A stretch of 64,000 bases of DNA, taken from contig OZ024750.1 in NCBI GenBank assembly GCA_964016885.1, forward strand, positions 45,694,001 to 45,758,000, written 5' to 3'. The translations under genes were made by a program, and so were the position numbers. Shown piece by piece: positions 8,722-63,131 of this stretch. Position 1 is the stretch's first letter. Every line of letters begins with the position of its first letter. The notes below the pieces were generated by a model, which worked only from the letters and a program-made list of their open reading frames with translations, ran no database searches and was not told where the DNA came from. This stretch comes from Eledone cirrhosa (lineage: Eukaryota).

Positions 8722-8905
8722 TGTAGGAAAGGTAAAGGAAAAGAGAGTGCTCTATGTAGGCGACAGAGCTTTTTAGTTATGTAATAAATAACATAAGATA
8801 ATTAATTCATTTACCAGTGGTTTCTTGAAGACAGATATAAATATCTGTCTTCAAGAAACCACTGGTACATGGATTAATTATCTTATGTTGTTTATTATGT
8901 AACTA
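8722..8905 (-). mobile_element. Fold-back element containing the 3' half of a hammerhead (related to 34388-34583)
   Basis: Palindrome 8775-8905 centred on GACAGATAT-AA-ATATCTGTC, followed by GAAA-CC-ACT-GG-TA. Tail AAGAGTGCTCTATGTA..ACAGAGCTTTTT is shared with 34420-34452. Confidence 0.65.
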
Positions 8906-9974
8906 TATATATATATATATATATATATATATATATATATATATATATGTGTGTGTGTGTGTGTGTCTTCATATATACATAGACACAAAGATACATACAC
9001 ACACGCTTATATGTAATATGCATACCGCATACGTTAATACATAAATACATACATCATTTGTACACACACACATACAATCTTACATACATACATACATACA
9101 CATGCAATCATATATACATACACACATTTGAACATACACACATACAATCATCCATCTATACATACATTTTTACACGCACGCATACAATGATACATACATG
9201 TATGCATACCTGCCTACATACGTACATAGATACATACATACACACATACAAACACATATTACCAGACACCAGTGTAGATATATGTGTGTGTGTGATTTAT
9301 TTATATGTGTATGTGGATGTATGTGTATCTGTGAGTATTTCGAGTATAAATGCGTGTATGTGAACTATTGTATATGTTCGGTTGTTTGTTTACATCTGTA
9401 TACACGACTCAGTGTGGGTGTGCGGGAGTGCGCATGTGTGTGCACGTGTATACGTATATGTGGGAGTGCGGGCGTGCACGTGTACGTACGTGTATGCTTG
9501 TGTATGCGCATGCAGTTGTCTAACTCTGTGTATCCAAAGGAACCAGTGGTAGTGGTGGGGGAGGGGATGCACCTATATTAAGGTAATTACGTCCGCAGTG
9601 AGAAGAAAATACAAACAAACAAATAAACAGAAAATAGAAATGGTCCAGCAGAATCGCACACCCACACATACACATACAGACATACACAGTTGCACACACA
9701 TACACATACACAGTCACAGATACACAGTTACACACACATACACATACACAGACACAGATACACAGTTACACACATATACACAGACACAAATATACAGTTA
9801 CACACACATACATACAGATACAGATAGACATAAATACACAGTCACAGACACAGAGACACACACACACACATATATATATATATATGTGTGTGTGTGTGTG
9901 TGTGTGTGTGTGTGTGTGTGTGTGTGTGCTTTTCTGCTGGACCTTTTCTCTCTCTCTTTCTCTCTCTCTCGATA

Positions 9975-10672
9975 TATATATATATATATATATATTTAAA
10001 TATATATATATATATTTATATATACATGTATATATATATATATATATATATATATATATATATATATATATATATATATATATATATATATATATATATA
10101 TATATATATATATATACATATATTTATATATATATACATACATATATTTATATATATATATACATATATATATATATATATATATTTATATATATATACA
10201 TATATATATATATACATATATTTATATATATATACATACATATATATATATATATATATATATATACATACATATATTTATATATATATACATACATATA
10301 TTTATATATATATACATACATATATTTATATATATATATATATATATATATATATTTATTTATATATATATATATTTATTTATATATATATATATATATT
10401 TATAAATATATATATATGTAAATATATGTATGTATGTATATATATATATATATACATACATATATTTATATATATATATATATTTATAAATATATATATA
10501 TGTAAATATATGTATGTATGTATATATATATATATACATACATATATTTATATATATATATATATTTATAAATATATATATATGCAAATATATGTATGTA
10601 TGTATATATATATATATATATACATACATATATTTATATATATATATATATATATATATATATATATATATA
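9975..10672. repeat. Compound (TA)n microsatellite
   Basis: Direct inspection. Confidence 0.95.
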
Positions 10673-10919
10673 TCCTGTTATTACTATTGTTCTTATTATC
10701 CTTGTTATTATATTAGAGAAAGGGTGTATTGCCAAGTAATTACAGAGTAGTGAGGCTAATAAATTGTCCATCCGTAGTGTTTAATATCGTTGCTGAGAGA
10801 TTCACAAGACTCGGGGTAATTCTTATAAGAATCATGACATTACCAGAGAGAAGGTTCGCTGTCTCACAACTGACAGTTCTGTCTTAAGATGGACGTCATT
10901 ACTTCAATGATTACCATCA

Positions 10920-12290
10920 TCACTATTATCCCTATTAGTCAGAATCGTCATAGCTCTACTATTAACACCACTACCACAACCGCCACTAACTGTAAATGCT
11001 GCTACAATCATCACTAACATTACAATAAATACATACTTCACTGTCCTACTACTAATACCATCGTCATTAGTACTCCCACCACAAACAACTGCTACCATCG
11101 TCACTAGTACTACCACCACAAACAACTACTACCATCGTCACTAGTACTACCACCACAAACAACTGCTACCACCGTCACTATTACTACCACGCCGAACAAC
11201 CACTACCATCAAAACTAAGACTACCACTATTATCGTAACTATTAAAACCACCAGTAAGTCCAACACTATCCCTCATACCAACTTAACTAACTACTCCACC
11301 ATTAACATTTCCACCACAAATACCACTACAATTGATAACACTTAATACTTACACACCACCACTAATGTTACTACAACCGACTCTCTCATTACTAACTATA
11401 CCTCTTACATCTCACTACAACCGACTATCTCACAACTAACAACAACAGCACTACAACCAGCTCTAATACAGCTAACAATACCTGTTAAACCACCACTACT
11501 AATGCCACTGCAACAAAGTGTCTCACAACTAACAACAATACCACCACCACCACCACCACTACCACCAATACCACCAACACCGCCACTGACGCCACCACCA
11601 CTACTACCACACCACAACCACTACCACCGCTGCCACAACTACCACCAACACCAACACCACAACCAACACCCCCACCACTACCACCACCGCCACTGACGCC
11701 ACCACCACTACTACCACACCACAACCACTACCACCACTACCGCAACTAACACCAATACCACCAGCACAACCAACACCGCCAGCACTATCACCACCACCAC
11801 CACCACCACCACCACCACATCTGCAGCCATCACCACCACCGACACCACCACAACCATCATCACCACCACGACCGCCACCACTACCACCACCGCCACTGAC
11901 GCCACCACCACTACTACCACACCACAACCACTCCCACCACTACCACAACTACCACCAACCACTCCCACCACCACAACCAACACCGCAACAGCAACCACCA
12001 CCACCACCACAGCTGCAACCAACAACGACACCATCACTACCACTACTACCACCAACAGCGCCACCACTACCACTAGCGCCACTGACGCCACCACCACTAC
12101 AACCAAACCACAACCACTACCACCACTACCACCACCACCACCACCACTACCACCACTACCACCACTACCACCACCACCACCACCAACACCACCACAGCTG
12201 CAGCCATCACCATCACCACCACCGACACCACCACAACCATCATCACCACCACCACCGCCACAACCACCACCACCACTACTACCACACCAC
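10920..12290. repeat. ACC/ACT trinucleotide-rich low-complexity tract with recurring CGCCACTGACGCCACCACCACTAC units
   Basis: Direct inspection. Confidence 0.85.
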
Positions 12291-60239: not shown

Positions 60240-60900
60240 TATGGATTACCTCCAGGCCGCCGGGAAAGCGCCTAAAAGGGCAATCCCGATGAACATTCAG
60301 CAATTTCTGGTCCTCACTGTCAAATGCTGGGCTATCTTTTATCTTTTATCTTCCATCACTACAATGATAGGAAGGTGAATGCCAGCTGGTTTAGATGTGA
60401 GATCCAGGAAAAGGTCTTGGTTGTCAAATTTGGACCAATTTCATGATCTTCGCCAATCTTCCTTCAGATCGAAATTGTTTTCTTGAAGGGTGTTCATTTA
60501 TTCCCAGAATGGCCTGCGTGATTTCAAACAGATGCTGGAAAGGTTTTCAGGTCTTGGACGTGGTAAGAAGTACTGCCTGACGGATCATCTCCTGACACCA
60601 CAAGTAAGAAGGAGTTGTATGAGAAAGAGTAGGGAGCCACTGAATAGGTGTAGATTTCAGTGTCCCAGATACTATTGCCGAGTTGCGGACGGTGAACAAA
60701 CTGGTGAACAGTACTCTGCATCTGAGTATGCAAGTGCTAAGTAAGAAGTTGGGTGCGTGTGTGCATCAAACCCCAAGCTGTTTTCTGTTAACTGCTAACT
60801 TAATGGTGAGGATGTTCGGTTCATGTCCGTATGTTGGTGAGTTCTATTCTGCGCGGCTCGTTATGATTTTCAGTGAGACACTATATTTCACATTGCTCCA
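60240..60900 (-). pseudogene. Decayed Vingi/Ingi-like LINE fragment
   Basis: Minus strand reads WGFDAH...LALAYSDAEYCSPV and IVSGTLKSTPIQWLPTL across frameshifts. Confidence 0.55.
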
Positions 60901-60909
60901 ATCCATTTG

Positions 60910-61030
60910 AATTGGGAGAGCTGTTAGAACGTCGGATAGAATGCATTGCTGTATTAATCCAGCTCGCTGCTGCCTGAGTTCAAATTCCGCCGAAGTCAAT
61001 ATTGCCTTTCATCCGTTAGAGGTCGATAAA
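60910..61030 (+). mobile_element. SINE
   Basis: CTGAGTTCAAATTCCGCCGAAGTCAATATTGCCTTTCATCCGTTAGAGGTCGATAAA. A more decayed copy lies at ~59910-60115. Confidence 0.65.
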
Positions 61031-62947
61031 AAAACCCATCAATCTAGGGGTCCATTATCCGTCTATAACTCTTCCTCGCTTACCTTTTCTCTCTATCTAT
61101 CTTCGGGAATAAATCCGTGCTGTTCAGATCGGGTTTTAAAATGCACACCAAACACTGTCATAACGACGGCCCTACCACTTCACCAGGAGTTACAGGCTTC
61201 CTACCTTCTCTCTTCAAACACCGCCACTGCAGAAAATGAGTTCTGACGGCACCAGAGTGGTATAATGAAAATATAGTTTATGTAAAAAACATACGGTGTT
61301 GTGTTGGCTGGAACGCCCTTGAATAAATCGACAAAGCGTCAGAACAGAACAATAACAATAGCCACAGTGGCCATTGATATCAGTTACTAAGAAGAACAAT
61401 AACATCACGAACTTTTATAACATTCGATTTCACTAATAATTTTCGTATGGTAGGGCAGTGTCCATGATGCATTTATCCCTTCATGGGTCTCCGAGACCGA
61501 TGGATAAAGGATCGTAGAATATATACTTAAATCAGTGCCTTGTCTTTATTGCAGAATCCTAGAAAGAGCAACTACATTTCCTTCAAACATAAGCCTATAG
61601 TCAGACAAAATGAAGACCGTAATAGACTCAGGATATCCGGAGGAAATGTTAGTTATGGGGGCATCGTGTTTGATCATATAAGCCTATCGTCAGAGGGAAT
61701 TAAGACCGTAATAAACTCAGGATATTGGGGGAAATGGTAGTTATGGCAGCATCGTGTGTGATCATATTTCATTTGATCCTGTTTTTAAAATGCCTAAAAA
61801 AACAACAAAACGAAGTGTAAACTGCAAACTGAATCACAGATAACAATTATTTAAAAAGAATAACGAAAATAATTTTCTTTAAATAACATTTGTATATATA
61901 TATATATATATATATATATATATATATATATATATATATATATACATGTATATATAATTATATATATATATTAATTATATATATATATATGAATATATAT
62001 ACATATATATATACATGATTATATACTTATATATATATATATTACTTATATATAAATATATGAATATATATACATATATTTATATATATATATATATATA
62101 TATATATATAGTAAAAAATTGAACGGGAACAAAACAGAGAGGCAGAACGAACAAAGGTTTATTAGTTTCACGCTCTTGAGAGTGGGGTGGTGGTATGTGT
62201 GTGTGTGTGAGAGTGTATGTGTGTGTACATATACATATATATATAGAGAGACAGATAGTGGGAGTGGGCGAGAGAAAGATAGTGTATGTGTGTGTATGTG
62301 TGTGTATTTACATATATATATATATACATACATACAAACTATTATATGAATGAGGATAATAAAATTTCAGTAATAAAACAGAATTATATAGAATTACCTC
62401 GTATATTACAATTAAAATGAGTGAGAGAATATGTGTAAAAAAATGGCTGGTGTTGAGAAAAAGAAAGGGTGGGAGAGTGAAACACTGGAGATAAGAGAAG
62501 GCGAGAAAGGGAGTGCGGAAACAAATGAAATACTGAGAGAGTAAGTGTTAGTATGTATGTACTATATATTTCAAGGTGTGAACGTATGTTTTAATATATC
62601 TTATTTTGTATTCTTATAATTCTTTTGCAAAAGCTTTTATCATTTTAATGTTAATATATTTAAAGTCGTTTTGAAATTAGATTTATTAATGTTTTTACGC
62701 CACTGAAAGTCCTGGATTTGAATTTCAGAAAAAAGATGTCTGAATACACATATATAGGATAAGTCTCTCTCTCTCTCTCTCTCTCTCTCTCTCTCTCTCT
62801 CTCTCTCTCTCTCTCTCTCTCTCTCTCTCCCTATCTCTCTCTCTCCCTCTCTCTCTATCTATATATATATATGTATATATATATGAATACATTATGTATA
62901 TATATATATATATATATATGTATATATATATATGTATATATATGTGT

Positions 62948-63131
62948 ACGAGTAGGACCCCGACGGCTGAGCTCAAGCCGTTTCGACGGCTAATTCTGGA
63001 ATTAGCCGTCGAAACGGCTTGAGCTCAGCCGTCGGGGTCCTACTCGTTCCTATCACCCACTCTACTACTCTAAGTATTGAGTACTTTGGTGCGTTATGGT
63101 CCACCTGGTTCCTTACCACATTTCCTTCGTT
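62948..63131 (+). mobile_element. Fold-back family B copy (best preserved)
   Basis: Perfect ~48-bp arms around CTGG (62948-63047) plus an ~85-bp tail; (TA)n flanks. Confidence 0.8.

Follow-up and report, generated by a model that had tools for sequence, protein, structure and literature searches.

What fixes the point at which the two inverted arms of a Penelope-like element (PLE) meet? The question is raised by a 64,000-nucleotide stretch of the Eledone cirrhosa genome (contig OZ024750.1; hereafter the window), in which a preliminary description placed the symmetry axes of eight fold-back repeats at hammerhead ribozyme motifs and proposed that the ribozyme fold sets the inversion point.

Fold-back copies in the window

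Many of the short mirror-image repeats in the window are cut-down PLE ends lying head to head, as had been supposed, and all eight named axes are genuine, each falling inside a hammerhead-like motif or on its edge. Seven belong to near-perfect fold-backs, centred at 7753.5, 8839.5, 14464.5, 27835, 47015.5, 47268 and 62997.5 by window scan and self-comparison, and the eighth, centred at ~26502, is decayed. Four further fold-backs beyond these eight also turn within a motif. The fold-back scan returned 22 rows; neither of two block-shuffled controls, scanned at half the step density of the real sequence, returned any. Self-BLAST of the window was run with masking; TA repeats dominate the unmasked comparison. 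The short copies are for the most part near-perfect palindromes, their arms separated by 0-10 nt of spacer.

In total, the axis lies within the motif in 12 of the 24 Penelope-type fold-backs (12/29 before five unlike repeats were removed), and seven of these 12 belong to a single family, B. In the other 12 the axis lies outside the motif or the motif was not seen. The five repeats removed as not Penelope-type were 23574 (a dispersed repeat present twice), the tandem 400-bp palindromes 56429 and 57039, both old, 32699 (a local inverted duplication) and the decayed, low-scoring 7384. The preliminary description had passed over the short counter-examples, namely family A copies at 28653 and 63965, the copies at 55807 and 1131, and five short fold-backs in which no motif was seen (1613, 19903, 24233, 58593 and 58851). 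By length alone, 4, 2, 3 and 2 of these five would fit inside a B-, C-, D- and E-type span, respectively.

Long elements and family A

14616..18542, long Penelope-like element with reverse transcriptase (RT) and C-terminal GIY-YIG-type region; cores 14909 (minus) and 18291 (plus); left-side tail
1749..4180, long Penelope-like element with GIY-YIG domain; junction inside the ORF; canonical hammerhead not found
47514..52821, listed part of a long element; spans ORF 49084-51045, which has an RVT_1 match
27649..28078, family A fold-back; axis 27835 at the stem II 5' foot; 2-nt microhomology; right-side tail
28336..28909, family A fold-back with two whole hammerheads, core 28710 (plus); axis 40-70 nt upstream of C3, a counter-example
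63705..64000, family A fold-back with a whole core, 63953 (minus), extending past the window end; a near-miss counter-example

The long elements carry the RT ORF with GIY-YIG endonuclease of EN+ PLEs, and the short families have no ORF. Besides ORF 49084-51045, an RVT_1 match was obtained for ORF 15182-16984 (weak, E 7e-4); GIY-YIG was matched in ORF 2877-3338, and further GIY-YIG-like C-termini were recognised by eye. In the element at 14616..18542 the arms are 99.5% alike and meet inside the ORF, and its 3' end aligns with that of family A; no autonomous partner for families B-G was seen in the window. The PLE protein has 183 homologues, the best named one being an Octopus vulgaris protein (67%), and no relative in viral or prokaryote contigs. 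The long element is present in 20 sequencing runs, in every one as assembled contigs, and no RNA dataset is among these listed runs. An inverted 5'-truncated copy set head to head, with a tail on one arm only and short ends fixed by family, was found in the three long elements and in families A, B, C and E, which is the insertion form of EN+ PLEs.

All three family A copies run for at least 186 nt and end in the motif or within ~70 nt of it; in the copy at 63705..64000 the left arm ends 9 nt and the right arm 29 nt upstream of C3. At 27835 the axis had been placed in stem II, with CUGAAG lost. It does lie at the hammerhead, but at the 5' foot of stem II, which is kept in both arms.

Hammerhead motifs of the short families

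Hammerheads were defined by the descriptor CUGANGA-stem II-GAAA-UH plus stem I and are predicted ribozymes. The descriptor scan returned full CUGANGA-stem II-GAAA-UH cores at 14468 (plus) and 14461 (minus), 47014 (plus), 28710 (plus), 63953 (minus), 18291 (plus) and 14909 (minus), 1106 (plus) and 55728 (minus); that at 34487 (plus) was found by eye and fold. Type I elements (CUGANGA, stem II, GAAA, UH, stem I) were present in families A, C, D, E, F and G and in the long element, with G and C assigned as hammerhead by eye and fold. Stem I is 4-7 bp in families A, D (minus arm) and F by descriptor scan, just 2 bp in the long element, and missing from the family E copy, which begins at C3. There was no Rfam hammerhead match among the matches listed (150 of 329) or in targeted scans of 34380-34600 and 1070-1180, the matches listed being hairpin and microsatellite noise. 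In the available text of the 2014 survey (PMC4209133), minimal hammerhead variants were likewise set by descriptor rather than by Rfam. The three-way junction is mostly missing from the minimum-energy folds, as the small size of minimal motifs would lead one to expect, and these folds are not counted as evidence.

8712..8905, family C fold-back; axis 8839.5 at the stem apex, followed by GAAA, a short stem III and UA; left-side tail
34388..34584, family C copy; full core 34487-34544 forms the spacer of a diverged fold-back; left-side tail
14414..14517, family D fold-back; axis 14464.5; cores 14468 (plus) and 14461 (minus)
46862..47074, family E fold-back; axis 47015.5; plus arm from CUGACGA (47014); left-side tail
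799..1296, family F, core 1106 (plus); junction off the core, a counter-example
55540..55877, minus strand, family G, core 55728; axis 55807, 78 nt upstream of C3, a counter-example

In the family C copy at 8712..8905, which lacks CUGANGA, the axis is the loop of a stem directly before GAAA, as first described, and is now seen to be a single stem with a 2-nt loop. Its supposed intact relative at 34481 is related (74 identities across arm plus tail) but is itself most likely a fold-back with the hammerhead core as spacer; the arm match was beaten by 0 of 2000 shuffles, and its left arm starts at the cleavage site or stem I. The claim that the 14464 axis adjoins the hammerhead is upheld by the two cores flanking 14464.5; a 7-bp stem I is preserved in the minus arm, and the plus arm begins at C3. 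Likewise, the axis put near 47010, at CUGACGA, is centred at 47015.5 beside the motif at 47014, and the left arm stops at the stem II foot. A non-folded family E copy at 4358 is cut within the stem II loop. The left arm of family F is a permuted partial tandem without 31 nt of the core. This partial wrap apart, self-comparison of the window gave no hammerhead-bearing direct tandem, so that the direct tandem units of non-LTR retrozymes, with a hammerhead in each, were not found here.

7640..7787, family B fold-back; axis 7753.5; left-arm tail
26270..26400, family B fold-back, newly found; axis in the stem III/cleavage-site region near 26298; breaks ambiguous
26442..26636, family B fold-back, decayed; axis ~26502; blunt junction; right-side tail
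28118..28188, plus strand, a lone family B arm, truncated ~20 nt upstream of GAAA
47214..47400, family B fold-back; axis 47268; 2-nt microhomology; right-side tail
57416..57499, family B fold-back, newly found; axis 57480, 27 nt upstream of GAAA; a TA repeat truncates the right arm
58973..59150, family B fold-back, newly found; stuttered partial copies at junction 59058-59090
62949..63132, family B fold-back; axis 62997.5; 2-nt microhomology; right-side tail

The family B axes are real and in the motif, as proposed, but only the 3' half of that motif (GAAAC, a 5-bp stem III and GUC) is retained; CUGANGA is absent from 8/8 copies, all cut before its expected place. The window contains 11 instances of the pattern GAAA, 5-bp stem, UH, compared with 1.5 in shuffles. 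Family B motifs gave two chance matches in metagenome contigs, both inside an unrelated ORF, and none in viral and prokaryote contigs; the family A motif gave none in viral contigs. A single ancestral inversion does not account for these copies. Their axes differ by up to ~13 nt across five copies, even between the youngest, 7753 and 62998, which have identical arms, and subfamily letters are the same in both arms of one copy but different between copies (62998; 59090; 47268/26500/57480).

Position of the breaks relative to the hammerhead

Twelve breaks fall in 596 nt of hammerhead and nine in 1704 nt outside it, a raw ratio of 3.8 (p 0.002). This becomes p 0.03-0.20 with one copy per family, 0.09 minus family B, 0.057 minus the long elements, and 0.19-0.62 minus the long elements with one copy per family; a permutation p of 0.008 rises to 0.10 once conditioned on motif visibility. 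Where the hammerhead lies at least 120 nt from the end, the break is in the motif in 1/5 copies (ratio 1.27, p 0.61). When proximity, repetition within families and motif visibility are allowed for, the raw enrichment in this window loses significance. The hazard analysis used rough distances first and then coordinates, and the results agree.

Arm length grows with the distance from the motif to the 3' end across eight families (Spearman 0.81, p 0.015), and in families B-E the motif starts just 5-35 nt before the short 3' end. Among the short copies of families A-G, none extends more than 78 nt upstream of C3. Half of the arms retaining CUGANGA (5/10) end within 10 nt of C3, a pile-up with p 0.006 against a uniform null but 0.07 and 0.19 against stricter nulls. 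In-motif breaks are scattered over stem I, C3, the stem II foot, the stem II apex and stem III, and seven of the 12 fall within the presumed helices of family B, of which the window holds no unfolded copy. Microhomology at six scored junctions was 2, 6, 2, 2, 0 and 0 nt versus 0.74 expected (p 0.009), with 26500 and 63965 set to 0 by eye and 26298 (ambiguous) and 59090 (stuttered) left out. This signal hangs on one junction (p 0.20 minus 7753), where 6 nt at 7746-7751 match the stem II 3' strand to the stem III 5' strand, a pairing that no ribozyme helix contains, and the 4-nt loop is part of the tail-less arm.

Formation of the inverted junction

The reading that we favour, with about even confidence, is that these are ordinary head-to-head Penelope insertions in which two cDNAs were likely linked at the hammerhead end through 0-6 self-complementary nt. 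The two cDNAs would be primed from both sides of the target break, and both would run out at the hammerhead-like motif or just past it. The short end and the tail end may correspond to the two reverse-transcription starts known in vitro for a Penelope-like protein, which cuts and extends both target strands, with two internal starts bounding the tail and cleavage not needed (Frangieh 2024, PMC11167929). The template RNA would have little sequence upstream of the hammerhead, so that copies end inside it or within tens of bases; in D. virilis the hammerhead appears, by our sum from the available text, to lie ~46 nt from the RNA start in the spliced form and ~121 nt from it in the unspliced form (Schostak 2008; Cervera 2014, PMC4209133). 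Two cDNAs of the same polarity would need self-complementary sequence in order to pair; in an AT-rich tail this could come from hammerhead helices and palindromic loops, and the pairing that joins the cDNAs may be the ribozyme's own or not. Half of the fold-backs would then turn in the motif, likely because it adjoins the copying start and lies near the RNA end. The spacers of 0-10 nt speak against this reading and favour a hairpin step, since two independently truncated cDNAs would be unlikely to leave them unless stopped by the same obstacle or end. At 7753, 34481 and 47015 the spacer belongs to the tail-less arm, so a single self-copying cDNA could not have made the tail of the other.

This last observation bears on the earlier model, decidedly improbable in our view, in which a single cDNA folds onto its stem II copy and self-primes the second strand. 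That model fits 8840, with its one stem, 2-nt loop and GAAA directly after, and the clean 6-bp stem and 4-nt loop at 7753 are a hairpin-priming signature, though off stem II; the available text of published work records cDNA snap-back as a minor R2 junction class (PMC11371274, PMC11331408) and proposes self-priming for Penelope junction palindromes (PMC3846280). It predicts one stem II at the axis, however, and misfits 14464, 27835 and 47015, which carry two, one per arm. With 7753 it is contradicted at four of the eight sites, 26500, 47268 and 62998 being left out of this tally. Given the spread of the five family B axes, at most one is the native loop. Snap-back on stem II is therefore contradicted as a general rule. 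It is even less probable, and indeed very improbable, that self-cleavage sets the break, with the inverted arm copied from cleaved RNA and ending at the cut site. The left arm of 34481 starts there and 26298 is open to the same reading, but the bases at 34481 are also the stem I 5' strand and hence ambiguous, both arms pass the cut site in the other 10 in-motif cases, and cleavage was unneeded in vitro, with no Anolis reads starting at the cut site (PMC11167929).

Possible, though on the unlikely side, is that the folded hammerhead RNA or a dimer stalls the Penelope RT, so that both cDNAs stop there, the helices join them and the fold sets the inversion point. The 12/24 in-motif breaks with their raw ratio, the tracking of motif distance by arm length, the lengths and ends of all three family A copies, the family E copy cut in its stem II loop, the 31 nt of core omitted by family F and the very small spacers all point this way. 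Against it stand the 1/5 rate for distant hammerheads, the visibility-conditioned p, the scatter of breaks along the motif, the non-ribozyme pairing of the best microhomology (7753) and the five motif-less fold-backs. We would only tentatively, at slightly lower confidence still, give the hammerhead a second role, its fold halting both RTs of a twin-primed insertion and its helices alone pairing the same-sense cDNAs, so that the junction is built without cleavage. It is improbable that the axes arose after insertion or were inherited, a few folded masters spreading whole, followed by central loss or by perfection of the hairpin through strand switching. The absence of an unfolded family B copy from the window would suit this, 34481 can be taken for a long stem I in its native state, with 8840 then derived from it by perfecting, and 32699 is a local inverted duplication of that kind; the subfamily letters shared between arms and differing among copies, the different axes of the youngest copies and the recurrence of the pattern in at least five unrelated families speak against it.

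Comparison with known systems

The architecture, the junction palindromes and the opposite-strand hammerhead pairs are already published. As set out in the available text, EN+ PLE insertions (Craig et al. 2021, PMC8557442; Arkhipova et al. 2013, PMC3846280) share the head-to-head arms, one-sided tail and microsatellite targets, and palindromes at the inverted junction are common to them, read as self-priming in the 2013 paper. The junction is not mapped onto the hammerhead in those portions of the two accounts; tails are 40-90 nt here versus 30-40 there, and most copies here, unlike theirs, are stumps without an ORF. The type I hammerheads of metazoan PLE pseudo-LTRs (Cervera and de la Pena 2014, PMC4209133) have, in the text available, the same CUGANGA core and tiny or palindromic helix III, an extra base before stem II as in family A, and opposite-strand motif pairs 100-700 bp apart. 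In-motif axes are not described in that text, and family B differs in its 5-bp helix III and lack of a visible 5' half.

The in vitro study of Poseidon PAc (Frangieh et al. 2024, PMC11167929) shares the model of two internal RT starts bounding the tail, with both strands cut and extended. There the hammerhead lies upstream of the starts and cleavage is not required; formation of the inverted junction was not addressed, and the long element here is probably of a different lineage. In R2, according to the available text (Zhang et al. 2024, PMC11371274; PMC11331408), cDNA 3' ends similarly prime on cDNA with microhomology above chance, and truncations inside the 5' ribozyme module resemble the breaks here. 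Unlike the copies here, R2 has single priming at a fixed site and an HDV-type ribozyme, and its snap-back, a minor class, yields no tail asymmetry. Animal non-LTR retrozymes, as far as the available text goes, are non-coding hammerhead units thought to be PLE-mobilised (PMC7229834; bioRxiv 10.64898/2026.07.22.740005). The permuted partial tandem look of the family F unit is retrozyme-like, whereas retrozymes form direct tandem arrays and the copies here are inverted and mostly shorter than one unit.

Implications for Penelope-like elements

The overlap of axis and hammerhead in this window is largely what the position of the motif predicts, and we regard it as a lead rather than a new mechanism. 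It matters for how PLEs form inverted junctions and for why they retain a hammerhead whose cleavage is dispensable. Every copy preserves two breakpoints, the owner of the spacer and the side of the tail, and setting tail against spacer speaks against a single self-copying cDNA. With 24 fold-backs across 64 kb, a genome so dense in stumps lends itself well to questions about the PLE junction.

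Fold-backs and hammerhead motifs in the window

An unbiased fold-back scan returned 22 rows corresponding to 21 elements, and two shuffles gave 0 and 0. Four fold-backs were added from self-comparison (two long elements, 57480 and 58593; single numbers of this kind denote the fold-back axis) and four by eye (26298, 26500, 34481 and 63965), for a total of 29. Leaving out those at 23574, 56429, 57039, 32699 and 7384 as not Penelope-type, 24 were analyzed. All eight axes named in the preliminary description are present, at 7753.5, 8839.5, 14464.5, 27835, 47015.5, 47268 and 62997.5, with a decayed one at ~26502. 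These eight, together with 26298, 34481, 57480 and 59090, make up the 12 of 24 fold-backs in which the break lies within a hammerhead-like span. The 12 in which it does not are 28653 and 63965 (both of stump family A), 55807, 1131, the three long Penelope-like elements (PLEs) at 14616-18542, 1749-4180 and 47514-52821, and five short fold-backs that were searched for a hammerhead core with none found. The latter are possibly the ends of other Penelope-like families.

Short fold-backs with no hammerhead seen (in most, a TA flank and an extension on one side are present)
1547-1679
19874-19933
24133-24370
58572-58615
58743-58962

In the three long elements the inverted arms are nearly identical, and reverse transcriptase or GIY-YIG domains are encoded. 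For one of their ORFs the best named homologue (67% identity) comes from Octopus vulgaris, so that this animal DNA probably belongs to an octopod. Microsatellites are abundant in the window, with 14,806 of 64,000 bases masked.

Other repeats and Penelope-like sequences in the window
1749-4180 and 47514-52821: young long Penelope-like elements, arms ~99% alike; their 3' parts show no hammerhead core, either canonical or with one mismatch
32617-32760: diverged 3' end of the 14616-18542 family, carrying a ~30-nt local inverted duplication ~200 nt downstream of the expected hammerhead position
53334-54485, minus strand: partial ORF of a further reverse transcriptase (Pfam RVT_1, E 2e-12), inserted between TA repeats
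23350-23815: dispersed repeat, presumably SINE-like, two copies head to head; other copies at 4955, 5190, 18686, 20029, 33510, 43048 and 60974
24487-25086, 33902-34299, 36346-37632 and 20641-20871: dispersed repeat, young (copies 95-97% alike) and up to 600 bp long, in tandem at 36346-37632
36964-40004: array with unit spacing of ~140 bp, a conserved 29-bp core and microsatellite stretches between
56200-57229: tandem pair of 430-bp units, 84% alike; both are old, imperfect palindromes

A descriptor scan located full hammerhead cores at 1106+, 14468+/14461-, 18291+/14909-, 28710+, 63953-, 47014+ and 55728-, and another, at 34487+, was recognized by eye and by folding. These cores are like the minimal type I hammerheads described by Cervera and de la Pena (PMC4209133), with family A having the same extra base before stem II. 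Neither the Rfam matches listed nor the targeted scans included a hammerhead. Family B (7753, 26298, 26500, 47268, 57480, 59090 and 62998) has a 3' half only, consisting of GAAAC, a 5-bp stem III with a palindromic loop, and GUC; CUGANGA was looked for in family B copies and found in 0 of 8. Hammerhead 3' halves occur 11 times in the window versus 1.5 in shuffles, and that of family B is not a product of chance. This family contributes 7 of the 12 in-motif cases, and as its 5' motif boundary was assumed to lie 55 nt upstream of GAAA, all seven breaks are inside by construction.

The copy at 34481 had been taken as the intact relative of 8840, the other member of family C. It shares the one-sided tail of 8840 but is itself most likely a fold-back: the sequence that follows the cut site, taken as its reverse complement, matches the leftmost 40 nt of the copy, and 0 of 2000 shuffles did as well. 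Alternatively, this match may be read as a native long stem I.

Position of the motif relative to the break

Measured upstream from the short 3' end, the motif in families B-E begins at 5-35 nt and extends to ~60-105 nt, so near to that end that most detectable stumps must break within it. Of the five short fold-backs lacking a motif, length alone would place 4 inside a B-type span, 2 inside a C-type, 3 inside a D-type and 2 inside an E-type span. The ratio of break rates per base in the motif and outside it was 3.8 (p 0.002) for all 24 copies, 2.0-3.9 (p 0.03-0.20) with one copy per family, 2.2 (p 0.057) without the long elements, 1.0-2.0 (p 0.19-0.62) with both restrictions, and 2.5 (p 0.09) without family B. 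For the five copies with the motif at least 120 nt from the end, one break was inside, three were outside and one was censored (ratio 1.3, p 0.61). When motif spans were exchanged between eight families, p was 0.008, or 0.10 if only motif-visible swaps were allowed. Arm length increases with motif distance (Spearman 0.81, p 0.015), a correlation predicted alike by an active role and by a template ending near the motif. Given the controlled ratios and the position of the motif, the reported coincidence of axis and hammerhead is confirmed in part: the axes are there and the overlap is real, but an excess over proximity is not demonstrated.

Junction anatomy and origin of the inversions

Inversions are found in at least five unrelated families. 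Within family B the axes differ, and subfamily letters are common to both arms of each copy, so inversions were made more than once; descent of all copies with a given axis from one ancestral inversion, named in the preliminary description as an outcome that would refute its proposal, was not what these copies displayed.

That description had proposed either that reverse transcription stalls at the ribozyme fold or that cDNA snaps back on hammerhead stem II and self-primes the second strand, such that the ribozyme sets the inversion point. Under the snap-back model, one stem II is predicted at the axis. Each arm keeps its own stem II at 14464 (family D), 27835 (family A) and 47015 (family E), with a 2-nt arm overlap at the stem II foot at 27835. 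The 6-nt overlap at 7753 joins the 3' strand of stem II to the 5' strand of stem III, and an active ribozyme cannot form the resulting hairpin. Only 8840 fits as it stands. Five family B copies would fit only if stem II were 14-27 bp, and their axes vary by up to ~13 nt. Joins lie within stem I at 34481 and 14464, and in or beside stem III at 26298. Overlaps at the six scorable junctions (2, 6, 2, 2, 0 and 0 nt) are above chance (p 0.009; without 7753, p 0.20). The proposed interpretation holds insofar as these are Penelope insertions, while stem II self-priming as a general rule is rejected, failing at half of its own sites.

Further observations on individual copies
799-1296 (family F): ~320-nt hammerhead unit; the minus-strand arm wraps from the tail to the unit start, lacking 31 nt that include CUGACGA; the result is a partial tandem in permuted order, of the kind that a circular or tandem template would give
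4358-4490: family E copy that is not folded back; it has a tail, and its 5' truncation is within the loop of stem II. A fragment consisting of tail alone is found at 18602-18650
55808-55877 (family G right arm): ends ~4 nt before the position of C3 (the first core base of CUGANGA) and enters T and ATT repeats, without motif or 3' end
59058-59090: between the arms, stuttered and incomplete repeats of family B junction sequence, as if priming had taken place several times

Each family has one fixed short end, with the longer end confined to one arm. A single snapped-back cDNA would own the loop and could copy only sequence that the cDNA already contained. At 7753, 34481 and 47015, the loop or spacer belongs to the tail-less arm and the tail is on the opposite arm; the tailed arm is the one that extends further at 14464, 26500, 27835 and 28653 and in the three long elements, an arrangement compatible with either a single cDNA or two. 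Two separately primed cDNAs joining at their 3' ends would account for both tail classes. A Penelope-like protein is known to cut and extend both target strands, with two internal starts bounding the tail and no need for hammerhead cleavage (PMC11167929). Free hairpin DNA trimmed by an endonuclease could yield the observed tails too. Most spacers are small (0-10 nt); this disfavors two independent truncations and calls for a shared stop, either a template end or an obstacle.

Among short copies, the furthest reach upstream of C3 is 78 nt, and of the 10 arms that retain CUGANGA, 5 end no more than 10 nt from C3 (p 0.006 against a uniform distribution, 0.07 and 0.19 against stricter nulls). In D. 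virilis Penelope, a 75-nt intron located 46 nt downstream of the RNA start (PMC2377424) reaches as far as helix I (PMC4209133); from the sum of these published distances, the separation between RNA start and hammerhead would be 46-121 nt.

Relation to known insertions

An inverted 5'-truncated partner, a tail and a microsatellite target are the standard PLE architecture (PMC8557442), inverted-junction palindromes with self-priming were proposed in 2013 (PMC3846280), hammerhead pairs on opposite strands were reported in 2014 (PMC4209133), and both cDNA snap-back and truncation within the 5' ribozyme are recorded for R2 (PMC11371274, PMC11331408). A full-text literature search that took in few subscription papers, judged from titles, the opening of abstracts and selected passages, listed no paper mapping PLE inversion breakpoints onto the hammerhead. 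We consider it rather unlikely that the hammerhead fold has an active, non-catalytic role, and the fold-backs in this window add more examples to a type of insertion that is already known.
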